Source: an uncultured Candidatus Saccharibacteria bacterium (lineage in GTDB: Bacteria; Patescibacteriota; UBA1384; VFKW01). Taken from it: a DNA stretch of 54,161 nt. The position numbers and the translations under genes are program-made. Location of the stretch: assembly GCA_964482785.1 (NCBI GenBank), contig CAYZYR010000002.1, positions 1 to 54,161 of the forward strand, read 5' to 3'. Shown in pieces: positions 4,381 to 54,068 of this stretch; the stretch's first letter is position 1, and the number at the start of each line of letters is the position of its first letter. The notes beneath the pieces are model-generated. The model made no database searches, was not told the origin of the DNA, and saw only the letters and a list, made by a program, of their open reading frames with translations.

Positions 4381-7300
4381 ATGTCAAATTTCATTCACTT
4401 ACACGTTCACAGTCATTATTCATTACTAGACGGATTGGGGAAAATTCCTGATCTTGTTGCCCGTGCTAAAAAATACGGCATGGATTCACTTGCTCTTACC
4501 GATCACGGCGTCATGTATGGAGCTATCGAATTTTATCAAGAATGTATTAAACAAGGCATTAAACCAATAATCGGCGTCGAAACTTACGTCGCTCCCCGGA
4601 CTATCAACGACCGTGTCCCAAAGATCGACACCACCCCATATCACCTAGTATTATTAGCAAAAAACTATCAAGGCTACGAAAATCTTCTAAAATTAATCTC
4701 CATCGCTCATCTCGACGGCTACTATTACAAACCCAGGATAGACAAGGAAATCCTCAAACAGCACAAAGAAGGTCTGATCGCTCTAAGCGCTTGTTTAGGA
4801 GGAGAAGTCGCCTCGCACGCCGGACATAGCAACAAAACAGCCGCCGAAAAATCCCTCCAAGACTACATCGACATATTCGGCAAAGAAAATTTCTATCTTG
4901 AACTCCAACATCATCCCAATCTCGAGCGTCAAAACATCGCCAACCAAATCCTTATAGAATTGGCTAGAAAGCACAATATTGGACTAGTAGCTACCAATGA
5001 TGTCCATTATATCGATAAAGGCGATGCAGAGGCTCAGGACGTCTTGCTGTGTGTCCAAACGGGCAAACTCATGACTGACATAGACCGCATGTCCATGAAA
5101 GAGGGTGGAGAATATTTAGATATCTCATTCCGCTCCCCTGAAGAAATGTCTCAAGCCTTCTCGCATGTACCAGACGCCATCGAAAACACCCAAAAAATCG
5201 CTGACCAATGTCAAATCGAAATAGAGATAGGCAAATTCCGCTTTCCCGAGTTCGCTCTGCCTGAAGGATATAATTACGAAACATACGTCAGAAAATTAAT
5301 CGACGAAAGATTGCCTCAAAAAGTCCCGACAGTTACAGAAGAAATGAAAAAACGCATTGATTACGAATTTGATGTTATCAAAGAAAAAGGCTATCTTGGC
5401 TACTTCCTAATTGTTCAGGATTTAGTCCACTGGGCCAGAGAAAGAGGTATCCCGACCAACACCAGGGGCTCTGCTGCCGGCTGTCTTGTCTCTTACGCTC
5501 TTGGTATTACCCCCTCTAAATTAAACCCATTAGACTACAACTTGCCCTTCGAAAGATTCCTAAATCCATTTCGTCCTTCCGCTCCCGATATCGATATCGA
5601 CATCGCCGACGCTGGCCGCAACGCTCTCATCGCCTACGTCTCCGAAAAATACGGTGCCGACCGTGTCGCTCAGATCTGTACCTTCGGAACCATGGCTGCC
5701 AAAGCCGCTATCCGCGACGTTACCAGAGCGCTAGGTTTTCCTTATGCCTTCGGCGATATGCTTTCCAAGCTCATCCCGACAGGTTCGCAAACCCAAGCTA
5801 TGAGCATTAAAAAGGCTCTCGACACCGCTCCCGAATTTAAAGAACAATATGACAATGACCCCAACGCCAAACGAGTCATCGACCTCGCCGTCAGACTGGA
5901 AGGTTGTGCCCGCCATGCCTCCGTCCACGCTGCCGGCGTTGTCATCGCTCCTGATGAAATCATCAAATTCACTCCTGTAATGCGCGACAACAAAGGCGAC
6001 CGCATGGTTACTCAGTATGAAATGCACGCCGTCGGAGAAGATGGCATCGGATTAATCAAAATGGACTTCTTAGGCCTAGCCAATCTGACGATCATCCAAG
6101 ACGTCTTGAGAATTATCAAAAAAACCAGAAACATCGATATAAAATTAGACGAACTAGAATTAGACGATCCCAAAACCTTCGAGCTTCTTGCCAATGCCGA
6201 AACCATCGGCGTCTTTCAGCTTGAATCAGAAGGCATGCGCAAGTATATCAAAGAACTAAAACCAACCAACATCAACGATATCATGGCCATGGTTGCCCTC
6301 TATCGTCCCGGCCCCATGAACTTCATCCCTCAGTACATCGAGCGAAAACACAATTCCTCCAAAATCCAATATCTCGATCCGCGCATGTCCAAAATTCTCG
6401 ACAAATCTCTCGGTCTGATCGTTTACCAAGACGACGTTTTAATGATTGCCATCGAACTAGCTGGATACAACTGGCAGGAAGTCGATAAATTCAGAAAAGC
6501 CATCGGTAAAAAAATAGTCAAAGAAATGGTTGCCCAAAAAGAAAAATTCTTCAAACAAATCATCGAAAGAGGCATGAAGAAGGATGTGGCCCAGGAACTC
6601 TGGAACCAAATCGAAACATTTGCCGGTTACGGATTCAACAAAGCCCATGCCGCCTCTTATGGTCTAGTCGCCTATCAGACAGCTTACCTCAAATCCCACT
6701 TCCCCTCCGAATTTATGGCCGCCTGGCTCACTTCAGAACAACACCGAGATATCGAAAAAGTCGCCTTCGCCCTCCAAGAAGCCGAAAGAATGAAAATCAA
6801 AGTCCTACCACCAGACATAAATTCTTCATTCGTCGACTTTGGCGTTATACCTGGAACATGGGAAATCAGCTACGCTCTCGCTTCCATCAAAAACGTCGGT
6901 AGAGGTGCCGCTGAAGAAATAACAGAAGAACGAAAAAATAACGGCCGATTCAAATCGCTTGAAGACTTCATCGAGAGACTAGGTCCCACAGTCATCAACA
7001 AAAAAATTCTCGAAAACCTTGCCAAAGCCGGTGCCCTCGATTCGCTCGCAGAAAGAAATTTAATAATCAATAATATGGAAGAAATCCTAAAATTTTCCGA
7101 CAGCGTCGCCAAATCAAAGCAATCTACCCAGATAAATCTTTTCGGGCTTCAAGAGCAATCTACCAAACATACCCTAAAACTCGAAGGCGCCAAACCCGCA
7201 GATAAAAAACAATGTCTCGCCTGGGAAAAAGAACTGCTCGGCATCTATCTCTCAGATCATCCATTAAAGACCATACAAAATATATTACCCAAGATTTCTA

Positions 7301-8013
7301 CCCCCATAGCCTACCTCGGAGCAAAAGTCGGCACCACCCAAAGAATTGCCGGCATCGTCACCCAATCAAAAAAAATTCTCACTAAAAACAATGAAAATAT
7401 GATCTTCATGAGACTTGAAGATCTATCAGGCAATTTAGAAGTTGTAGTTTTTCCCAGAGCCTACGATATCTGCAAAGACTGCACTCAAATAGACAGGCTT
7501 GTTGTAGTCGAAGGCAGAGTTCAAAACAAAGACGACGAAATAAAATTTATCGCCGAGACAATAGAAGAAATTCCTCAAGACGCCGAGGATCTTATCAGGA
7601 TGGAAATAAAGCTTCAAAAAAACAGCAAAGAAGTCGAAAAAAAATCTAAAAAAACATCCTCCCGAAGCTTCTGCTCATCAGGAGAAAATTTACCAAAAAG
7701 TCAAACTGTAAAAGAAAACTCTCTTCCCAAGCCGCCGAAACCAGAAAAACCGGCCCTCACCCTAAAACTAGAACACAAACATACCCAAAAAACTCTCCTT
7801 GAACTAAAAGAAATCTTTGCCAAATATCCAGGTCAAACACCTGTCAAGCTTCAAGTGCCCATAAACTCTCACCACAAAGAAGTTAAAACCAAAATCACCG
7901 TCAGCCCCTCAGGTGACCTTATAAACGAATTATCTCATTTAATAGACCCAATCAACATCCATGTCCCAGTCGCAAATTTACCCATAGATTCTACAACCGA
8001 CTTACTACCATGA
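4381..8013 (+). CDS. dnaE: DNA polymerase III alpha subunit with a ~170-aa K/P/S-rich C-terminal extension
   Basis: PHP domain start FIHLHVHSHYSLLDG, followed by the polymerase core and an OB-fold region. 1210-aa ORF ending in TGA. Confidence 0.95.
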   Translation: MSNFIHLHVHSHYSLLDGLGKIPDLVARAKKYGMDSLALTDHGVMYGAIEFYQECIKQGIKPIIGVETYVAPRTINDRVPKIDTTPYHLVLLAKNYQGYENLLKLISIAHLDGYYYKPRIDKEILKQHKEGLIALSACLGGEVASHAGHSNKTAAEKSLQDYIDIFGKENFYLELQHHPNLERQNIANQILIELARKHNIGLVATNDVHYIDKGDAEAQDVLLCVQTGKLMTDIDRMSMKEGGEYLDISFRSPEEMSQAFSHVPDAIENTQKIADQCQIEIEIGKFRFPEFALPEGYNYETYVRKLIDERLPQKVPTVTEEMKKRIDYEFDVIKEKGYLGYFLIVQDLVHWARERGIPTNTRGSAAGCLVSYALGITPSKLNPLDYNLPFERFLNPFRPSAPDIDIDIADAGRNALIAYVSEKYGADRVAQICTFGTMAAKAAIRDVTRALGFPYAFGDMLSKLIPTGSQTQAMSIKKALDTAPEFKEQYDNDPNAKRVIDLAVRLEGCARHASVHAAGVVIAPDEIIKFTPVMRDNKGDRMVTQYEMHAVGEDGIGLIKMDFLGLANLTIIQDVLRIIKKTRNIDIKLDELELDDPKTFELLANAETIGVFQLESEGMRKYIKELKPTNINDIMAMVALYRPGPMNFIPQYIERKHNSSKIQYLDPRMSKILDKSLGLIVYQDDVLMIAIELAGYNWQEVDKFRKAIGKKIVKEMVAQKEKFFKQIIERGMKKDVAQELWNQIETFAGYGFNKAHAASYGLVAYQTAYLKSHFPSEFMAAWLTSEQHRDIEKVAFALQEAERMKIKVLPPDINSSFVDFGVIPGTWEISYALASIKNVGRGAAEEITEERKNNGRFKSLEDFIERLGPTVINKKILENLAKAGALDSLAERNLIINNMEEILKFSDSVAKSKQSTQINLFGLQEQSTKHTLKLEGAKPADKKQCLAWEKELLGIYLSDHPLKTIQNILPKISTPIAYLGAKVGTTQRIAGIVTQSKKILTKNNENMIFMRLEDLSGNLEVVVFPRAYDICKDCTQIDRLVVVEGRVQNKDDEIKFIAETIEEIPQDAEDLIRMEIKLQKNSKEVEKKSKKTSSRSFCSSGENLPKSQTVKENSLPKPPKPEKPALTLKLEHKHTQKTLLELKEIFAKYPGQTPVKLQVPINSHHKEVKTKITVSPSGDLINELSHLIDPINIHVPVANLPIDSTTDLLP

Positions 8014-8164
8014 CCCTTCAAAGAGAAACTTAAACTCATTATCCTGCTTTACCAGAAGCAAAGTCAAAGATCTTCTATCTTAAATAACTCTTCATGTAAC
8101 GAAAAATACCTCAGATACAAATCTGACTTTTCCGAATATATTTATTTATGATCAGATTTATAAT

Positions 8165-14107: not shown

Positions 14108-14878
14108 TCATTCGCCATTACCATCTGTTGTATGTCGTCCCGCCCCCAGCCACGCCAGCTCAAAAATCGCCCTCTGAGTTCTAACCACCTCTGCACTCTC
14201 GATAATAACTCCCATCAGATCTTTATATGAAGCAATAAACATCTTATTTCCGAATATATTTATCTGGTTTGAAAACGGAAATTTCTCCGGATCGACCATC
14301 CTGCTCTCCCTCAACTCCGCCTTATCTCTCCCGATCAAATCAATAGAATCAGCCGAATACTCAATAATGCATCTCTGAGTAATCCCCTTTTTAACCCGTC
14401 GTGGAATATAGCCCTCGATATATTTTTCAACATATTTATTATCAACCGAAAACGAAGAATACGCCAGCGTCTCCGAACCCCGCGGCAAATCCAGCGTCTC
14501 TTCGAACATTTGTTTAATTCCATCGATCCCCTCGTAAAATCTCACCCTCGGCTTCACTGAACCTGAATTTTCAATCGACATCAGCTCCGGCAAAGCCTTC
14601 TTAACCTGGCTCAATCTAGCCTCAGCCATAGACTCAAGCCTTTTTGGACTTTGCGCCACAAAAATCGTCACATTATCCCTCGTTGCGCTATAAACTAACC
14701 CCTTCCGCGACAACTGCTCAAGGATATAATAAGTATTCGCCCGCTCTACTCCCGCCTTCTGAGCAATCGTCGAGGCTGCTTCTCCGCCCAGTTCCAAACA
14801 AGCCAAATAAACATTGGCAAACTTTCGATCCAGACCCAAATCATCCAAAATTTGATATACATTTTCATCCATTTTCAC
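14108..14878 (-). CDS. TrmB-like transcriptional regulator, paralog 1
   Basis: N-terminal wHTH (L..LGL......VYLA.LELG..TA..IA.K.G..R...Y.IL..L...GLV) plus a conserved C-terminal domain ending INIFGNK...IIES.E...TQRAIFELAW. Shared with the genes at 29628, 43769 and 53331. Confidence 0.75.
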   Translation of the reverse strand: MKMDENVYQILDDLGLDRKFANVYLACLELGGEAASTIAQKAGVERANTYYILEQLSRKGLVYSATRDNVTIFVAQSPKRLESMAEARLSQVKKALPELMSIENSGSVKPRVRFYEGIDGIKQMFEETLDLPRGSETLAYSSFSVDNKYVEKYIEGYIPRRVKKGITQRCIIEYSADSIDLIGRDKAELRESRMVDPEKFPFSNQINIFGNKMFIASYKDLMGVIIESAEVVRTQRAIFELAWLGAGRHTTDGNGE

Positions 14879-14987
14879 CTCATTTTTGTTGTAAAATACT
14901 TTTTACACTATTATTTCATAAAAACAAAATATGTCAATATAAACCTATTATACACAAACAAATCATTATAATAATTGTAAAAGAGTA

Positions 14988-15016
14988 TTGACAATTAAGC
15001 TCATCCATGCTACAAT
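14988..15016 (+). promoter_or_regulatory. Consensus sigma70-like promoter of the radical SAM cassette
   Basis: TTGACA (14988..14993), 17 nt, then TACAAT (15011..15016). Confidence 0.55.
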
Positions 15017-15117
15017 GGCCAGTCAACGATGAGAAAGCCAAGGCGATCCATCGTCGCACATTAACAAGGCAATCATGCTGAAGCAGGCGGCGGACTGCGA
15101 AGACCCTGCTTGGATAA

Positions 15118-16347
15118 ATGTCAATCATTGTCCAAGAAGTGACCGTCAGGACTCCGGAATATTGGAGCCACGAAAGAAAGGAGGATACTACCATAAAAAA
15201 TTCAGACAAAGCCGTTCAGCACGGTCTCGAAAGAAAAAACACCGGCAGACTTCAATCCCTTTGGATTGAACTGCCCGGCAGGTGCAATCTGGCCTGCTCC
15301 TATTGCTACGCCTGCGGCGGAGAGAAGCTCGACGAAAGCCGGCTTCTCTCATGGTCAGACTACGAGAATATTCTCGAGTCAGCCAAAGCTATGGGCGTCG
15401 ACAGCATCGGTATTCCCGGCGCTGGCGAACCGCTTTTTGGTGAGAATTATAATCTCACCATGCGCTTCCTTCAGAAGTGCAAAAATTTGGGCCTGTTCGT
15501 GACTCTGTTCACAACTGGCCAATTCATTACTCCTGAGCTCGCCCGAGATCTTTATGATCTCCCCGTTGAGATCATGCTCAAAGGCAACTCCCTGGATCCC
15601 AAAGTTCAGGACGATTTTGCTAGCAATCCGAAGCTCGACAAGAAAAGCCTTCGCCGCGGCTACGGAAAGGCTAGAAACCGCGCTATCGAAATATTGATAG
15701 CCGCCGGTTTCACCAATGAATTAGCCTGCACAAAAATGTACGGGCGTCGTTCCCGACTTGCTCTGGTCACATCTATTATGACCAGTGAGGATGATGGGCC
15801 ATCCAACTACAAAGAGATGGCCGACATCTTGCGGTTCTGCCGCCAGAGAAACATCATCTTCGACTGCGACTCCGTCTTAAAACGGGGACGCGGTGCCGAC
15901 TGCTCCCTCTGCGCTGCCGATCAGGAGATCAAGGCTAAGCTCCTTGAACTCCAACAGATCGACCGCGCAGAGTTTCCCGAGTACCCGAAGTGGGAGCTTT
16001 CACAGTCCTACGTCGGAACCGTCTGCGACCGGTACATGCACCACATGTACATCTCGCAGTACGGTGACATCCGCCCTTGTATCGGGGCGATGGATGTCGA
16101 CCTCGGAAACGTCAAGTCCAACACGCTCGAAGAAGCGTGGAATTGCGCCGAAATGCGCATCATCCGCCGCCGCCATTTCGGCGGCGTCTGCGGAACCGAC
16201 TGCAAAAACTTCGCTGAAGGCAAGTGTAATTCCTGCCTCGGACGAAGAGCAATAAATCTTACCAACGAAACCTTGCTTAAAGAAGGTTTCGTTGACACCA
16301 TCGGCTGCTGGAATAATCAGCCGATCAAATCCAACAGGGATGTTTAG
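15118..16347 (+). CDS. Radical SAM enzyme with a C-terminal SPASM/twitch-type Cys cluster (anSME- or maturase-like)
   Basis: CNLACSYCY (CxxxCxxC), GIPGAGEPL, and C-terminal C..YGDIRPC...CGTDCKNFAEGKCNSCLGR. The start is uncertain. ATG 15118 lacks an SD, while the only strong SD (AAAGGAGG, 15177..15184) is followed 8 nt later by an in-frame ATA (15193). Confidence 0.85.
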   Translation: MSIIVQEVTVRTPEYWSHERKEDTTIKNSDKAVQHGLERKNTGRLQSLWIELPGRCNLACSYCYACGGEKLDESRLLSWSDYENILESAKAMGVDSIGIPGAGEPLFGENYNLTMRFLQKCKNLGLFVTLFTTGQFITPELARDLYDLPVEIMLKGNSLDPKVQDDFASNPKLDKKSLRRGYGKARNRAIEILIAAGFTNELACTKMYGRRSRLALVTSIMTSEDDGPSNYKEMADILRFCRQRNIIFDCDSVLKRGRGADCSLCAADQEIKAKLLELQQIDRAEFPEYPKWELSQSYVGTVCDRYMHHMYISQYGDIRPCIGAMDVDLGNVKSNTLEEAWNCAEMRIIRRRHFGGVCGTDCKNFAEGKCNSCLGRRAINLTNETLLKEGFVDTIGCWNNQPIKSNRDV

Positions 16348-16370
16348 CCATAAGCATCCCTTCTTTTTTT
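16336..16370 (+). terminator. Rho-independent terminator of the radical SAM gene
   Basis: AGGGATG-12 nt-CATCCCT followed by TCTTTTTTT; the stem overlaps the TAG stop. Confidence 0.6.
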
Positions 16371-16451
16371 ACCCAACTTTAGCAACGACCCTCTCTATAC
16401 CGAGACCGCTAAAAAGCCTTTCTATCGTCACCCTGAAACGACTTTGCCGTT

Positions 16452-16478
16452 CTCGAGCCGAACTCTGTTCGGCTCGAG
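16452..16478. repeat. Perfect 12-bp inverted repeat in a GC-rich non-coding tail
   Basis: CTCGAGCCGAAC-TCT-GTTCGGCTCGAG. It lies within ~380 nt (16371..16750) that has no convincing ORF. Confidence 0.6.
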
Positions 16479-16685
16479 GATCCATTCAGAACCCAGATAT
16501 ATGTTTAACTAGATTCCAAGTCAATCCCGAAACGACAGTTTTGAAGTGCCTTTAATTAGTTTTTCATCGGTCTCATACCACCTCTTCAGACTATCGCCAC
16601 CAAGGCGCAATTCAACCACCGGTCGCATGTCGTCAGTTATCGATTGCAGGCGTCACCCAACACGTCAGATAACCGTCCAAAATAT

Positions 16686-16714
16686 TTGACAGCCATCTCG
16701 CCACATAATAAAAT
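16686..16714 (+). promoter_or_regulatory. Sigma70-like promoter of the Phd-domain gene
   Basis: TTGACA (16686..16691), 17 nt, then TAAAAT (16709..16714). AGGAGG precedes ATG 16752. Confidence 0.5.
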
Positions 16715-16751
16715 TAATCTATAATTAAAAACAAAAACTTAGGAGGGGTAA

Positions 16752-18236
16752 ATGGCTATTAGTGCTCCATTAGATAAAATCATTCCTTTAACCGACGCTC
16801 GCGACAATTTCTCAAAAATAATCGCCGACATTGAGCGCACATCAGAAGGAATGTATGTCTTAACCAAAGGCGGCAAGCCGGCTGTTGCTATTATTAATAT
16901 CAATTATCTCGAGAGACTGACCGGTAATCCAATGATCAAACAAAATGATAACCCGGAAGAAATCAAGGAACTAGACGAATTAGAGGAAAACACCTTCGGA
17001 TCATCAGATGACAACAAAGAATCAGATACCAATAAAGAAACCCAAAAACCAGATAATTCACCTACAGATAAACCATCAAACGAATCGGCAAAGCCAGAAG
17101 GAAAACCCTTAAACGAATCTCCGAAACCAACAGATAAACCTATGCCGCCAATCCAACCCTTCAAGCCAGTCATAAATAATACCCAAGCACCTACCCCAAC
17201 CACACCGCTGCCTCCGGCTGCTCCAACCAAAATTCCTACACCGCCTGCCCCGACCCCAGCTTCCGCGCCAATCCCATCAACACCAGCACCAACACCTCCC
17301 ACTCAACCAATCCCATCTTCTATTCCCGCGCCAATCCCGCCAATACCACCAAGACCACCACTTGAAACTCCAATACCAGCCCCCGCTTCATCAGCCTCAA
17401 CACCGGCGGCCCCTAACAAACCACTATCACAACCTGGCGTGTCCTCAATAAAAACCCCTCCTGCTATCGCTGCTCTCGAAAACAAACCAAGCACTACTTC
17501 TACAAACCCAACTCCTAAACCCCAACAGTCACCTGTTCCTGCACCAGTTTCACAGCCCACTCCACAGCCAACGCCAAATCCAACACCAAATCCAACACCA
17601 GCTCAGGCGCCAACTCCACCTACACTTTCATCCACCTCGACTCCATCCTCTACCCCAGTTAAGCCACCCCCTCAACCTACCAAACCTCAGCCTATTCCCA
17701 CACTACCCCCAACCACACCGCCGCCTCCGTCTGCTCCAACCCAAGTTCCTGCATCGCCTGTCCCGACCCCAGCTTCCGCGCCAATCCCACCAACACCAGC
17801 TCCTGCGTCTGTCCCACAATCCCCTAAGATTAATCCCTCATGGTTAAATCCATCTCAACAACCCAACACTCAAACCCAAAACCAACCACAAACTACTCCA
17901 CAGCCAACACCAAGCCCAGAAGCAAAACCGCAAGTCCCAACACCTCCAACTAATCCAACGCCACAGCCAGGATCTCAAACCCCCAAACCGCAACCTGCTC
18001 CACAACCGACAATACCTTCTTCAACTCCTAATTACACTCCCCAGTTCACTTCAGGTTCCGGCGCTGTGCGAAACTTAAGCATCGGAGGAACCACAACGCC
18101 TCAAACAGCAAATACACCGCCAAACTCTACTCAGCCTGCAAATACAACCCCTACTCCGACGCCCGAAACACCTCCGACGCCCGAAACACCTCAAACCCCC
18201 AACCAGCCTGCCGACGTCAAAGATATGGAAATATAA
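16752..18236 (+). CDS. Phd/YefM-type antitoxin domain fused to a ~430-aa Pro/Thr/Gln/Ser-rich low-complexity region
   Basis: The N-terminal ~58 aa (IPLTDARDNFSKIIADIERTSEGMYVLTKGGKPAVAIININYLERL) is Phd/YefM-like. The remainder consists of PTPxP-type repeats. No toxin ORF is adjacent. Confidence 0.8.
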   Translation: MAISAPLDKIIPLTDARDNFSKIIADIERTSEGMYVLTKGGKPAVAIININYLERLTGNPMIKQNDNPEEIKELDELEENTFGSSDDNKESDTNKETQKPDNSPTDKPSNESAKPEGKPLNESPKPTDKPMPPIQPFKPVINNTQAPTPTTPLPPAAPTKIPTPPAPTPASAPIPSTPAPTPPTQPIPSSIPAPIPPIPPRPPLETPIPAPASSASTPAAPNKPLSQPGVSSIKTPPAIAALENKPSTTSTNPTPKPQQSPVPAPVSQPTPQPTPNPTPNPTPAQAPTPPTLSSTSTPSSTPVKPPPQPTKPQPIPTLPPTTPPPPSAPTQVPASPVPTPASAPIPPTPAPASVPQSPKINPSWLNPSQQPNTQTQNQPQTTPQPTPSPEAKPQVPTPPTNPTPQPGSQTPKPQPAPQPTIPSSTPNYTPQFTSGSGAVRNLSIGGTTTPQTANTPPNSTQPANTTPTPTPETPPTPETPQTPNQPADVKDMEI

Positions 18237-28052: not shown

Positions 28053-28652
28053 CTAAACCTCCACAAACCTCTCATACACCTTATCCCAGTTTACAATCTC
28101 CCAAAATCTCTCCACATACTCCGCCCTCTTATTTTTATAATCCAAATAATAAGCATGTTCCCACGCATCCAAAACCATCAAAATCTTAAAATCCGGAAAA
28201 ACATTTACATTATGCTTCTCAATCTGCATGATCATAATTCTATCCGTTAGACGACATTTTGTCATAACCGCCCAACCCGATCCCTCTACCTTAACCCCCG
28301 CCTCGCTAAATTCTTGCTTAAACCTATGAACCGAGCCAAAATCTTTCTCGATAGCCACCTTCAATTCTTCGCTCATCTCTCCACCCTTGCCCACCGGCGC
28401 CAAATTTTCCCAAAATAAACTATGCAGAACATGCCCTCCGATATTAAACGACAGCGCCTTTGCCATCGCCTTCACATCAAAATCAATATCATCCGCTCGT
28501 GCCTTGTCCATCTTTTCCAAGATCTCATTTGCCCCATCAACATACGCTCTGTGATGCTTGTCGTGATGCAAAACCAACTGCTTTTCCGAAATCACTGGCT
28601 CCAACCCGGAGTTCCCATAAGGTAAATCCGGCAAAGTATAAAATTTGTCCAT
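28053..28652 (-). CDS. Fe/Mn superoxide dismutase
   Basis: [13 protein letters not shown]...[11 protein letters not shown]...[19 protein letters not shown]. Confidence 0.95.
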
Positions 28653-29536
28653 AAAAGCTCCTTTTTAAAACCACTTTACCTATTATAATTATCCAATAAT
28701 ATATTTAATTCTCCAAACATTATACCATCCTCCTGCGTCCGATCCTATCGCTCTGAAATCTCCTAAATCCATTAATCCAACAGTGTACGTCGCACATGAT
28801 CCAGATTATATTCATCACTCATTCAGACGCCACAATAGCCATTATACACTCATCTCTTCTATCAGATATTAATTACTGGATTATGTTCGTCCGCTAATTT
28901 CCCAAGCTTGACAACACTATAGAACCCGGCGACGAGCATAGTCCCCACCAGATTAACAAAATTCATAACCCCCTTCATCTTTTCGACAAAACCGCCATAA
29001 ACGAAACCGTTGTTTCCAAAACTAATACGTCCATAATCTCATCAGAGCTTCCCTTTTTATCAAACAACACCATAAAATGATGAAATACGGATACTTACAG
29101 ATGTATAAGTTCTAGGCGATAACTTACTTATTATAACTATCGAGAAAGCTACATATCGCTCCATCCACTGGCAACATTTTTTCTTCGATATATCACTTAA
29201 CCTAGCCAAAAGGGAAATATCCATATACATCCGCTCTGCTATTAACCTGATAAGCCTCAACCGCAATCATCAGACCACAACCTATTCCAAATACCACCCC
29301 GTCTCCATACCATTACAGTACTACACCGATTCCAACACAAACCACAAATACATCAACATCGTCTTTTTGTAATGACATACCGCTAATACCCGCTCGGATT
29401 TTTCAACTCCGCTCGGCTCGCCTCATAAATAGTTTTTTGTAAATATCAGTTGTCCGGCCATTTTAGAACGCCATCCATTCTAACAAACGATATTGTAATA
29501 TATATTAAAATTTATCAAAACTTTACGACATAAAAT

Positions 29537-29565
29537 TTGACAGATTTAAAAATACAAAATATTAT
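29537..29565 (+). promoter_or_regulatory. Sigma70-like promoter of TrmB-like paralog 2
   Basis: TTGACA, 17 nt, then TATTAT. It is followed by the inverted repeat TAGTCG-8 nt-CGACTA (possible operator). Confidence 0.45.
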
Positions 29566-29627
29566 TAATTTAGTCGGTATTCTACGACTATAAATTAACC
29601 GCTTAAAATTTAACATCGGAGACATTT

Positions 29628-30365
29628 ATGAACCATCTAAAATCCCTTGAGAAAATGGGCTTAAATAATAAAGAACAAGAAATCTATATAACTCTTCTCC
29701 AACTCGAAAAAGCCACCGCCAACCAAATCGCCGAAAGATCAAAACAAAAGCGCCCCACCACCTATGACATCCTCTATCGCCTCCAAGACCAGGGCTTTAT
29801 TTACGAAACAAAAGAAAACAACAAACGATATTTCATCGCCAACTCTCCCGAGACGCTCTTAAAATTAGTCGAAGACCAAAAAAGAAACCTCGAAGCCGAC
29901 CTCCCCGCCCTCCTGTCTATCTACAACACCAACCCCAAAAAACCCAAAATAGCCTATTTTGAATGGTACGAAGGCATAAAATTATTTTACGAAGACACAT
30001 TATCAACCCTTAAAAAAGGCGACGAAATAATGGCTTGCGCTACTAATGAAACCATCGAGTATCTCGAGTCATACTCCGCCAACTACGTCCAAAGACGCAT
30101 TCAAAAAGGCATTCATTTGAAAGGAATATACCAAGACACACCTGATCTAAGAAAATACCTTGAACATAATGACGACCAACTTCGAACCTCAAAAGTTGTA
30201 AAAGCCGAAAAATTTCCCCTCAAAAACGAGATAAATATCTATGGCAACAAAATCATTATTATCACCTATTCGCCTCAGCCTTACGGTATTCTTATCGAAT
30301 CAAAAGAAATCGCCGACACCCAACGTGCCATCTTCAACCTCGCCTGGAACAGTATTAAAGACTAA
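29628..30365 (+). CDS. TrmB-like transcriptional regulator, paralog 2
   Basis: Same architecture as 14108..14878. It ends INIYGNKIIIITYSPQPYGILIESKEIADTQRAIFNLAW. Confidence 0.75.
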   Translation: MNHLKSLEKMGLNNKEQEIYITLLQLEKATANQIAERSKQKRPTTYDILYRLQDQGFIYETKENNKRYFIANSPETLLKLVEDQKRNLEADLPALLSIYNTNPKKPKIAYFEWYEGIKLFYEDTLSTLKKGDEIMACATNETIEYLESYSANYVQRRIQKGIHLKGIYQDTPDLRKYLEHNDDQLRTSKVVKAEKFPLKNEINIYGNKIIIITYSPQPYGILIESKEIADTQRAIFNLAWNSIKD

Positions 30366-43768: not shown

Positions 43769-44587
43769 CTATCTCAGAAACTGCCAAAAAAGCTCAAATA
43801 TCGTCTTCTGCGTTCCAGCAAAATCTTTTTCATCAATAATCGTCGCCATCGGGCGCTGGAATGACGCTAAAAGCACTTTATCTCCGTACACAGCGCTAAA
43901 ACGTGGCAAACTAAACCCAACCGGCAAAACCCTTGTGTCCCACGGCACCTCGCCCGCATTCTCATCGCCCCTCAATTTCTCAATAGTTTTCTGTTCGACC
44001 TGCCTAACGCTGATCCTTCGCTTCTCTATCTCTCTAACATACCAGTCAAAATGATCTGGCATCCATCTTTTCCACGCCCCTATCGAACCATAAATCATTA
44101 TCGGCTTTTTCTGCAGCAAGCAATCATTCAGCGCCTCCACCAATCCCTTCGCACCATCATAAAACTGTATTTTCGGTTTCCCGCTCACCATCTCCGACAA
44201 ACCTCGTAATTGCGGGATCAATTCCTTCAGTCCTTCCTGCCGCTCTTCGATTAATTTCCTTTGTTCCGCTAATTCCTCCGCCTGACGATCAACATGACCA
44301 ATCAGTTTCTCCGGCCCTTCCGCAAAGAACTTTTTAACCTTCCCGTCGTCATTCCCAAAAGCCACAAACCCGGATTTCTCCAGCTCCTTCAAAATATCAT
44401 AAACCGTAGTCCGTTGAAGCTTAGTATTTTTCGCGATTTCACTCGCCGTCATTTCCCCATACTGTAACAACGATAAATAAACTCGCGCCTTTTTGTCGGA
44501 AAAACCCAATTTAGATAATGCGTGACTAAATGCCACATTTCCTCCCGTCGATACACCATCAACACCAAAAAATCCCAATTTAATCAT
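43769..44587 (-). CDS. TrmB-like transcriptional regulator, paralog 4
   Basis: ALSKLGFSDKKARVYLSLLQYGEMTASEIAKNTKLQRTTVYDILKELEKSGFV plus a C-terminal domain ending DFAGTQKTIFELFW. Confidence 0.75.
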   Translation of the reverse strand: MIKLGFFGVDGVSTGGNVAFSHALSKLGFSDKKARVYLSLLQYGEMTASEIAKNTKLQRTTVYDILKELEKSGFVAFGNDDGKVKKFFAEGPEKLIGHVDRQAEELAEQRKLIEERQEGLKELIPQLRGLSEMVSGKPKIQFYDGAKGLVEALNDCLLQKKPIMIYGSIGAWKRWMPDHFDWYVREIEKRRISVRQVEQKTIEKLRGDENAGEVPWDTRVLPVGFSLPRFSAVYGDKVLLASFQRPMATIIDEKDFAGTQKTIFELFWQFLR

Positions 44588-49489: not shown

Positions 49490-49632
49490 TTCGGACTCCT
49501 TTCCTATTTAATCTGGCCTCAAACCAGCCTTTCAATACTGCTTTAACTTTATACCAAATTATTACCTTAAAATCTACAGTCTAATTTAGCAATAAAATTC
49601 CGCCGAACTCTTTATAATGTATTTTACAAAAA

Positions 49633-49662
49633 AATTGTAAAGCTTCCTTTACAATTTGTCAA
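49633..49662 (-). promoter_or_regulatory. groESL promoter with an embedded perfect 10-bp inverted repeat (operator candidate)
   Basis: Minus strand reads TTGACA (49662..49657), 17 nt, then TACAAT (49639..49634). AATTGTAAAG (49633..49642) and CTTTACAATT (49647..49656) span the spacer and the -10 box. Confidence 0.5.
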
Positions 49663-53330: not shown

Positions 53331-54068
53331 TTATTTCCCAGCCGCCCGCCACATAAATTCAAACATCATCTTCATAGAACTCGCGATCTCCGAGCTCTCG
53401 ATCACTACTGCGTGGACATTTTTCCCATAAGAAACCAAAGCCAAATTATCGCCGAAAATCACCATATCCGTTCCCAAATACATCCATTCCGGCAACTCCC
53501 GCGCCTCCTGCAAACCCGCCGCATACTTCCTGATATATTCCGCCGCAAACCCGCCTTTCACCACCAATTCTCTCACTTTCATCTTTTTTTTCATCGTATA
53601 CTCAAAGTATTTCTTAAAGTAATCTCCTAAAAAAGCCTCTATCTTCCCTGAATCAGCCACCGCCTGGATCTCCCGCGATCGCTTCACCATCTCGTAAACC
53701 TCGATCAACCCTCTGCGCCCCTCAAAATACCTCACCTTCGGCTTTTCCTCAGCCTTGTTGTAAACCGAACGCAAATCCGGCAATATCTCCTGAAATTCCC
53801 TCAGCTTATCTCTAAGTCCCAGCTCTAAATTCTTCGGGTCTTGCGCAAAATACCGCCTGCGATTGTTCTTTTCCCCATATGAAACCAGCTTTAAATTAAG
53901 CAATTCATCTAAAATATTATAACAATGCGCTCTTTTTATCCCCGCTTTTCGCGCGATCGGCTGTACCGTCGATTCTCCCAATTCCAAGCCCGCCAGATAA
54001 ACGCTTGTCTGTTTGTCGTTCAGACCCATCGATTTTAATATCAGGTTTATCTTATCCATTTTCGTCAT
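53331..54068 (-). CDS. TrmB-like transcriptional regulator, paralog 5
   Basis: LKSMGLNDKQTSVYLAGLELGESTVQPIARKAGIKRAHCYNILDELLNLKLV plus a C-terminal domain ending VVIESSEIASSMKMMFEFMW. Confidence 0.75.
   Translation of the reverse strand: MTKMDKINLILKSMGLNDKQTSVYLAGLELGESTVQPIARKAGIKRAHCYNILDELLNLKLVSYGEKNNRRRYFAQDPKNLELGLRDKLREFQEILPDLRSVYNKAEEKPKVRYFEGRRGLIEVYEMVKRSREIQAVADSGKIEAFLGDYFKKYFEYTMKKKMKVRELVVKGGFAAEYIRKYAAGLQEARELPEWMYLGTDMVIFGDNLALVSYGKNVHAVVIESSEIASSMKMMFEFMWRAAGK

Follow-up and report, generated by a model that had tools for sequence, protein, structure and literature searches.

What system does a radical S-adenosylmethionine (SAM) gene belong to when it has no evident substrate gene, an ambiguous start codon and a long leader, and how is it controlled? 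The locus that raises this question occupies positions 14,879 to 16,751 of contig CAYZYR010000002.1 (GenBank assembly GCA_964482785.1), from an uncultured Candidatus Saccharibacteria bacterium; the whole 54,161-nucleotide stretch that was analyzed is called the window below. We propose a self-contained and probably horizontally mobile module, in which a TrmBL2-type regulator is paired with a divergent, stand-alone radical SAM/SPASM enzyme that would be held under repression and translated from an ATA codon, a reading whose probability we put at roughly 55%. The two genes are the following.

15193 to 16347, plus strand: radical SAM/SPASM enzyme gene, 384 amino acids (aa); its frame is open from ATG 15118, which would give 409 aa.
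14108 to 14872, minus strand: TrmBL2-type winged-helix regulator gene, 254 aa from ATG 14872; its frame is open from GTG 14878.

An earlier reading made from the letters alone (hereafter the sequence-only reading) had described a 409-codon radical SAM gene with a SPASM-type cysteine cluster, and domain searches bear this out. The frame runs from ATG 15118 to the TAG ending at 16347 (409 codons), and the product matches both Radical_SAM (PF04055, 40.5 bits; cutoff 29.5) and SPASM (PF13186, 32.2 bits; cutoff 21.5). The CX3CX2C motif (C56-x3-C60-x2-C63) is invariant in 29 aligned sequences, as are seven C-terminal cysteines (C303, C321, C358, C362, C370, C373 and C397). The enzyme belongs to the SPASM kind of radical SAM proteins, with G316-x4-C321 in place and a variant centre: C358-x3-C362-x7-C370-x2-C373 reads CX3C-X7-CX2C instead of the canonical CX9-15GX4C ... 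CX2CX5CX3C ... C. As the earlier reading had also held, there is no RiPP recognition element (RRE; RiPP, ribosomally synthesized and post-translationally modified peptide) or PqqD-like domain at the N terminus, where Pfam is blank and the AlphaFold2 (AF2) model places its first strand only at residue 47, preceded by just ~20 conserved residues. This model, built on the alignment, has a predicted local distance difference test score (pLDDT) of 81, and fold searches with it retrieve generic SPASM/twitch enzymes alone, at TM-scores of ~0.5 (SkfB, SuiB, MoaA, PqqE, anSME).

A search of 5.8 billion proteins yielded 158 relatives with 46-79% identity and a typical length of 372-384 aa, all of which, where named, come from Patescibacteria of the Candidate Phyla Radiation (CPR) or from DPANN archaea (Nanoarchaeota, Pacearchaeota, Woesearchaeota) reconstructed from metagenomes. 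CPR and DPANN enzymes share 55-60% identity, and the 29 aligned sequences have a mean column identity of 58% with dozens of invariant residues. When 1.84 billion cluster representatives were scanned exhaustively with HMMER, just 63 proteins reached E<=1e-30, indicating a small and sharply bounded family, and no NCBIfam model came near its cutoff, the best being NirJ2 (55 bits), AhbD (50 bits) and a tungsten-cofactor maturase (49.5 bits) against cutoffs of 380-500. The family is thus highly conserved, bounded and restricted to CPR bacteria and DPANN archaea. We found no description of the enzyme family, the cassette or the leader in the literature; the family and the related leader motif described below are undescribed, and nothing at the locus breaks known categories. 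Two further loci, one labelled Saccharibacteria and one Woesearchaeota (L031 and L034), show tblastn similarity to the enzyme with no intact open reading frame (ORF) in a crude gene call, for which pseudogenes, frameshifts or a different genetic code are possible causes.

The sequence-only reading had seen no obvious partner for the enzyme, a statement overturned by comparing homologous loci: across ~35 of them, the sole conserved neighbour is a regulator gene placed head-to-head with the enzyme gene. Among the loci for which upstream sequence exists, nearly every CPR one has as this neighbour an orthologue of the regulator at 14108-14872(-), with 30-71% identity; all seven from DPANN have in its place a tandem Lrp/AsnC protein of 315-329 aa, the best PDB relatives of which are FL11/LrpA regulators and not the siroheme decarboxylase AhbA/B. 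The adjacency of regulator and enzyme is therefore conserved, with a TrmBL2-like protein in CPR and a tandem Lrp/AsnC protein in DPANN, and the other genes flanking the pair vary from locus to locus. We rejected the idea that the DPANN neighbour is a siroheme decarboxylase (AhbA/B, NirDL) pointing to a haem pathway, as it scores 35.7 bits against an AhbA cutoff of 140 and its top hits are Lrp/AsnC regulators.

The regulator itself carries a TrmB helix-turn-helix domain (PF01978, 41.6 bits; cutoff 25.6), and its AF2 model (pLDDT 92) shows a winged helix, a long helix and a phospholipase D (PLD)-like C-terminal domain. Its best PDB match is TrmBL2 (5bpd), aligned over the full length, followed by TrmB. 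Residues 76-256 give no Pfam match even at E<=10 and contain no recognizable sugar-binding subdomain; TrmBL2 likewise lacks this subdomain, which is a feature of TrmB proper. In some orthologues a Nudix domain is found at the C terminus. The window encodes three more TrmBL2-like paralogues with 28-37% identity, at 29628-30365(+), 43769-44587(-) and 53331-54068(-), so that this regulator family is expanded in the genome.

How the pair might be controlled is suggested by the DNA between and behind the two genes, which holds these elements.

14988 to 15016, plus strand: enzyme promoter, near-consensus sigma-70-type, TTGACA-17-TACAAT with a TG-extended -10 box, 11/12 match.
14910 to 14937, minus strand: regulator promoter-like site, TTGACA-16-AATAAT with TG, 11/12, a consensus match only.
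14890 to 14907, no strand: O1, perfect palindrome TGTAAAA-tact-TTTTACA, candidate autoregulatory operator.
14972 to 14997, no strand: O2, imperfect palindrome TAATTGTAA-aagagtat-TGACAATTA, candidate operator with a TGTAAAA half-site.
16336 to 16371, plus strand: intrinsic terminator of the enzyme gene, an 11-pair stem (16336-16361) followed by TCTTTTTTTA, overlapping the stop codon.

Both the promoter and the terminator had been predicted from the sequence and are present, the latter as the stem at 16336-16361 with its T run. TrmB regulators are associated with palindromic sites. Here, O1 lies between the start codon and the -10 box of the regulator gene, and the -35 hexamer of the enzyme promoter falls within O2, positions which suggest that the enzyme promoter may be repressed. 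The window has five sites of the O1 type with at most two mismatches, where 0.57 would be expected. The closest relatives conserve the block TTGTAAAATAGTATTGACA and keep both operator blocks, and more distant clades have different palindromes in the same regulator-proximal place, as expected if operator and regulator co-evolve. An automated scan of 22 homologous intergenic regions found a best promoter-like site of 11-12/12 in 15 of them, which fits control by repression; an automated operator search over the same number of loci was noisy and partly informative.

A further site of this kind was seen elsewhere in the window: at 49611-49653 on the minus strand, upstream of groES-groEL, the perfect palindrome TTGTAAAG-gaag-CTTTACAA sits between a TTGACA -35 and a TACAAT -10 box, with the same half-site as O1. 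A TrmBL2-like repressor may also control the chaperonin operon.

Base composition offers a further view of the pair. The G+C content (GC) of the enzyme gene (15193-16347) is 52.4% against 41.4% for the window, and that of its leader is 50% against 36% in the adjacent promoter DNA. Coupled with the variable neighbourhoods and the identity between CPR and DPANN enzymes, this excess argues that the regulator-plus-enzyme cassette has probably spread horizontally.

Where translation of the enzyme begins had been left ambiguous by the sequence-only reading, which noted that the first ATG (15118) lacks a Shine-Dalgarno (SD) sequence and that the only strong one precedes an in-frame ATA. Both observations stand, and the family N terminus now favours the second site.

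15177 to 15195, plus strand: SD AAAGGAGG (15177-84) and probable non-AUG start codon ATA (15193-95), placed by homologue N termini.

ATA 15193 stands 8 nt past AAAGGAGG, the only strong SD, and the N termini of 28 homologues align to this codon: they begin M-x-x-(I/V)-S-x-K-(A/S)-V-Q-H-G-L-E-R, and the window has ATA at that methionine. Close relatives have ATG where the window has ATA, which is unique among the homologues examined; thus GGAGaatagaATG TCT ATC TCA AAG AAG TCC GTA CAG CAC in one relative (L059) corresponds to GGAGGatactaccATA AAA AAT TCA GAC AAA GCC GTT CAG CAC in the window. There is no further ATG, GTG or TTG in frame before the conserved core. On these comparisons the functional start is most likely ATA 15193, giving a 384-aa product, and the 409-aa gene call is probably an artefact. 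The ATA would be either a true, low-efficiency non-AUG initiation codon or a recent ATG-to-ATA change.

Translation from ATG 15118, with a lineage-specific N-terminal extension of 25 residues, is an unlikely alternative but one that deserves some weight: no canonical start comes earlier in the open frame, the gene caller settled on this one (P0001, 409 aa), and extensions are also called in a few homologues. Those extended calls, however, hold an internal SD and ATG at the family start position, just as the window has its strong SD 8 nt ahead of ATA exactly there. ATG 15118 is preceded by ...cctgcttggataaATG, with no SD, and sits between the arms of a 12-nt inverted repeat (15106-15117/15128-15139); the 25 residues it would add are unconserved and predicted to be disordered (pLDDT <50).

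The same ATA could be taken as a sign that the gene is decaying, an ATG-to-ATA mutation having silenced the enzyme and relaxed selection having allowed insertions into its leader. The uniqueness of the codon among the homologues examined would fit, as would a leader insertion of ~80 nt that has no counterpart in relatives and the presence of other long ORF-free stretches in the window. The reading frame is intact, though, as is the regulator gene, and the promoter, SD and terminator are all near-ideal, so we regard gene loss as quite improbable.

The leader between promoter and start codon had been described as structured, with two stems. Both exist, at 15026-31/15049-54 and 15081-87/15105-11, one base off the coordinates first given, and they differ in what comparison says of them. 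The leader contains the following parts.

15022 to 15068, plus strand: 5'-terminal leader hairpin P1, core ACGATG (15026-31)/CATCGT (15049-54), together with the junction that follows it, conserved.
15057 to 15068, plus strand: junction CACATTAACAAG after P1, conserved.
15070 to 15150, plus strand: window-specific insertion of ~80 nt, with stems 15081-87/15105-11 and 15106-17/15128-39.
15152 to 15167, plus strand: pre-SD hairpin CTCCGG-aata-TTGGAG, the CTCC of which is the sole anti-SD-like element of the window leader.

P1 spans 15022-15059 and begins a few bases past the -10 box. Among the closest relatives (alignment A3) A-GATGAG is invariant and CACATTAACAA conserved, and the hairpin is predicted in most of 25 leaders, with GAUGA(G) in the 5' arm, a helix of 5-11 bp and a loop of 3-58 nt. 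Five different helix sequences occur among them and, as aligned, amount to compensatory change. The variable loop argues for an RNA hairpin rather than a DNA operator, and P1 as a dimeric operator was rejected on this ground, its arm spacing varying from 3 to 58 nt. The junction past P1, ...UUAAC followed by AAG (in DNA, CACATTAAC followed by AAG), is kept in homologous loci. As judged from these alignments P1 and the junction are conserved and the leader is not random. The finding that the sequence-only reading had named as speaking against it, a well-characterized housekeeping enzyme whose leader shows neither conservation nor covariation in homologous loci, was thus not obtained.

The second stem fares differently, since 15081-15111 falls in a stretch that relatives lack. 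The insertion at 15070-15150, about half of the leader, is missing in all aligned relatives and shows no similarity in any locus. The overlapping peptide ORF that had been suggested at 15075-15269 does exist as a mechanical 64-aa ORF, but it spans this insertion, has no counterpart in relatives there and was rejected as unconserved. A mini-ORF at the conserved GATGA was rejected as well, being 3-31 aa long, unconserved and sometimes without its ATG. Beyond the insertion, the pre-SD hairpin has a homologue in a related locus (L008; GCCAGA-aca-TCTGG) with compensating changes. The SD is unpaired in both the minimum-free-energy and the centroid fold, and the folding energy of the leader does not differ significantly from that of shuffled sequences (z = -1.63). 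No terminator-like site occurs at 15017-15192, which makes the transcription attenuator that had been considered unlikely. Searches with Rfam 15 gave no window match at the gathering score and only chance-level ones at E<=10 in 14850-16800.

A more elaborate leader of ~110 nt, here called type A, is found in a sister clade, in the CPR genomes at these places.

L025, 3842 to 3952: type A leader.
L003, 5878 to 6003: type A leader.
L010, 3394 to 3521 and 3895 to 4012: type A leaders.
L016, 1398 to 1503, minus strand: type A leader.
L054, 6966 to 7067, minus strand: type A leader.
L007, 1860 to 1969, minus strand: type A leader.

Type A leaders are built in the order P1, a UCAUUGAAAA block, an anti-SD UCUCCUUU, a GGCC-loop hairpin, the SD and the start codon. 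The hairpin, UGUGCUnUCC-GGCC-GGAAGCAUAA, is almost invariant, and RNAalifold predicts both it and the anti-SD:SD helix. In 19 aligned copies 95.4% of cells pair, with compensatory changes at 8/15 pairs, in an alignment fitted to the model, which favours structure; none of 500 shuffles reached the observed value, and slid controls gave ~50%. A covariance model of this leader (R1) finds with cmsearch 21 copies of at least 64 bits in related loci, each ending at a start codon. Rfam, run on nine plus five related loci at gathering and lax thresholds, gave nothing relevant. We rejected the GGCC hairpin as a TrmB operator, since it stays the same in clades that have different palindromes near the regulator. 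The pre-SD hairpin of the window may be a diverged counterpart of this hairpin, and the window leader is a diverged, partly rebuilt version of the family leader.

Type A copies precede genes of the enzyme family, a 764-aa B12-type radical SAM gene (L054) and a 430-aa radical SAM gene (L007), the latter two both head-to-head with a TrmBL2-like paralogue; they also precede a 100-aa Tpt1/ART-like ORF and an SDR-like protein. A TrmBL2-like regulator gene accompanies most of the genes in this set that were examined. The L054 locus (4674-8032) is a block of IF-2, RbfA, DHH and AP-endonuclease genes in which the B12-type gene stands where L003 has a radical SAM/SPASM gene, so that the type A leader and the divergent TrmB-like gene are kept and the enzyme is swapped. 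The 100-aa ORF (L010 3519-3821, L014 3088-3390, L050 2916-3215) resembles the NAD-binding ART domain of the RNA 2'-phosphotransferase Tpt1/KptA (NCBIfam E 9e-6; Pfam PARP E 0.013).

At the level of the family, the occurrence of this leader before three unrelated radical SAM genes supports the riboswitch idea raised by the sequence-only reading, and its sequestered, covarying SD does so too. For the window the same idea fares worse. A leader that works as a riboswitch for a ligand, or as a sensor RNA of another kind, and so controls translation of the enzyme would agree with the conserved P1 and junction, with the GC of the leader relative to its neighbouring promoter DNA and with its sister-clade kin. 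Yet at E<=1 the type A model finds nothing in the window, whose leader has neither the anti-SD block nor the GGCC-loop hairpin; the SD is free in predicted folds of unremarkable energy, a lineage-specific insertion makes up about half of the leader, and Rfam offers nothing beyond chance even at E<=10; we consider such a switch in the window improbable. A wider and bolder proposal is that the family leaders are a new riboswitch-like class of cis-regulatory RNA for CPR radical SAM genes, sensing SAM, 5'-deoxyadenosine or redox/Fe-S status, with the repressor as a second layer, with the enzyme perhaps modifying nucleotides in conflict or salvage and passing between CPR and DPANN, and with the window as a diverged member. 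We hold this to be speculative and on balance doubtful; if true, RNA and repressor would form two layers of control over an enzyme whose activity is a cost or a danger when it is not required.

What the enzyme acts on is approached here through its company and its relatives. The best fold matches are SkfB, SuiB, PqqE and sactisynthases (E 6e-12 to 1e-8), which could speak for a RiPP maturase whose precursor is a small ORF in or near the leader, either 15075-15269 or a tiny ORF opening at ATG 15029; a 31-aa ORF is indeed called in the leader of one homologous contig. However, the enzyme has no RRE, ORF 15075-15269 crosses the stretch missing in relatives, and leader mini-ORFs vary in length (3-31 aa), sequence and presence. 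At a mean column identity of 58%, no peptide gene is co-conserved in ~35 loci, in agreement with the earlier statement that no precursor or substrate gene is adjacent. We give the RiPP explanation very little credence.

We tentatively favour, with low confidence, a small molecule of nucleotide or nucleotide-sugar type over a peptide, because RRE and precursor are absent, some regulators are fused to Nudix domains and a distant relative is fused to an ATP-type adenosine deaminase. The NAD-utilizing ART-like mini-protein co-regulated in related loci is another pointer to nucleotides. The next relatives, with 35-43% identity over the whole enzyme, are N-terminal modules of proteins of ~940-1780 aa (33 of the top 150 representatives; P0254, P0265, P0251, P0261 and others); most of these large relatives are similar past the enzyme module, with varying C termini (local BLAST). 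One of them, P0254 (L065 6001-11031), has a Cad1-type adenosine deaminase at its end and is encoded after an ABC importer.

Several assignments to known enzymes were rejected. Matches to AhbC/AhbD/NirJ reach 50-55 bits against cutoffs of 500, and the anaerobic sulfatase-maturating enzyme model TIGR03942 is not among the 25 best of 42 NCBIfam matches. No sulfatase occurs as a conserved neighbour in homologous loci, the window as a whole not having been scanned exhaustively for one. Prokaryotic viperin (pVip) is matched by the radical SAM core alone (residues 29-124, 30 bits) in a protein that has a SPASM domain, and PADLOC shows only this weak viperin-core similarity, on which membership in a defence system was dismissed. 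Nothing supports a relation to the lipid enzymes Gms/Tes; the comparison with Gms was by its published description, which gives an extra N-terminal helical domain and a length >420 aa (PMC11186832).

These observations can be assembled into a working model. The regulator would bind the related palindromes O1, at its own promoter, and O2, at the -35 box of the enzyme, and would repress both genes until a signal releases them. The mRNA would then start at ~15023 with a protective or regulatory 5' hairpin, and inefficient initiation at ATA 15193 would yield the 384-aa enzyme, whose CX3CX2C cluster and two auxiliary clusters (7 Cys) would serve hydrogen-atom abstraction from a substrate not encoded nearby.

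A number of points weigh against this model. On the side of the substrate, full SPASM enzymes with two auxiliary clusters mostly act on peptides or proteins, RiPP maturases are the enzyme's best structural matches, and of the seven large relatives examined with Pfam a single one, which shares 38% identity with the window enzyme, has the deaminase fusion. The assignment of candidate operators rests on palindromes and their position; there are four TrmB-like paralogues in the window, any of which could bind O1 and O2, and the groES promoter holds a similar palindrome. Finally, model bacteria initiate very poorly at ATA, and the codon is seen here in a single contig, where it might reflect an error of sequencing or a mutation that has recently inactivated the gene.

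Downstream of the enzyme gene lies one further element.

16372 to 16685, no strand: ORF-free spacer holding a perfect 12-bp palindrome (16452-16478).

The palindrome is where the sequence-only reading had placed it and is the only one of its kind in the window, chance alone predicting 0. The surrounding DNA turned out not to be GC-rich as claimed (43.6% for 16348-16751 against the window mean of 41.4%), the GC-rich parts being the enzyme gene and its leader. All six frames of the spacer are full of stops, with no ORF on either strand, and the spacer has no similarity in any fetched locus and no Rfam match. The downstream spacer folds more stably than shuffled sequences (z = -5.6), partly owing to the terminator and the palindrome. 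No T run follows the palindrome hairpin on either strand, so it is not a terminator. It was also rejected as a repeated element, being single in the window and absent from viral contigs. We also rejected the view that the spacer is what remains of the UPF0102/NERD gene found after the enzyme in close relatives, as there is no tblastn signal and the window copy lies at 1053-1403. Past the spacer, 16686-16714 holds the promoter of the next gene. The stretch 16752-18236(+) encodes a 494-aa protein with a Phd/YefM-antitoxin-like N terminus (27.9 bits, just under the Pfam cutoff of 29.8), then ~430 residues of low complexity rich in Pro, Thr, Gln, Ser and Ala. Elsewhere in the window, 28653-29627 is ~1 kb without any ORF >68 aa, between a superoxide dismutase gene (28053-28652, minus strand) and a TrmB-like paralogue, which for a small genome is an unusual length of non-coding DNA.

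CPR bacteria and DPANN archaea are ultra-small symbionts of minimal metabolism, most of them uncultured, and an enzyme that is 55-60% identical across two domains and has a dedicated regulator must matter for that lifestyle. The locus offers three handles: an orphan enzyme family small enough to characterize, a bacterial TrmBL2-type putative repressor with clear candidate operators, and a structured leader marking radical SAM genes in related genomes that could be a new riboswitch class. It is also a case of a probable ATA start mis-assigned by automatic gene calling.

Parts of the module find parallels in known systems. The type A leader is reminiscent of SD-sequestering leaders such as SAM-III/SMK box, SAM-VI and ROSE/fourU in having an anti-SD:SD pair at the base of a long hairpin just before the start codon, although no Rfam family matches either it or the window leader, and the window leader is without type A blocks. 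To our knowledge, the apical hairpin is unlike any known class. The regulator shares with TrmBL2 of Thermococcales (PDB 5BPD) the TrmB winged helix, the long dimerization helix and the PLD-like C-terminal domain in a full-length alignment, and with the TrmB family at large an association with palindromic sites. It differs from TrmB proper in the missing sugar-binding subdomain and from TrmBL2 in being bacterial (CPR), with four paralogues in 54 kb, in the Nudix domain at the C terminus of some orthologues, and in appearing gene-specific, with a divergent pair and candidate operators, where TrmBL2 is a chromatin-like global binder.

Like anSME/AtsB, AhbD/NirJ, BtrN and MoaA, the enzyme is a single polypeptide with a CX3CX2C core, a Cys-rich C-terminal auxiliary-cluster domain and no RRE, and AhbD/NirJ2 and the tungsten-cofactor maturase are its top, though weak, NCBIfam matches. 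Unlike SPASM/twitch enzymes without an RRE, it scores around ten-fold under every family cutoff, has its own Cys spacing and CPR-DPANN distribution, and stands beside no conserved sulfatase, tetrapyrrole or cofactor genes. With the RiPP maturases SkfB, SuiB, PqqE and the sactisynthases it shares the closest fold and a full SPASM domain with seven cysteines; it departs from them in having neither an RRE/PqqD-like domain nor a precursor gene, and in a sequence conservation between two domains of life far above what RiPP tailoring enzymes usually show.

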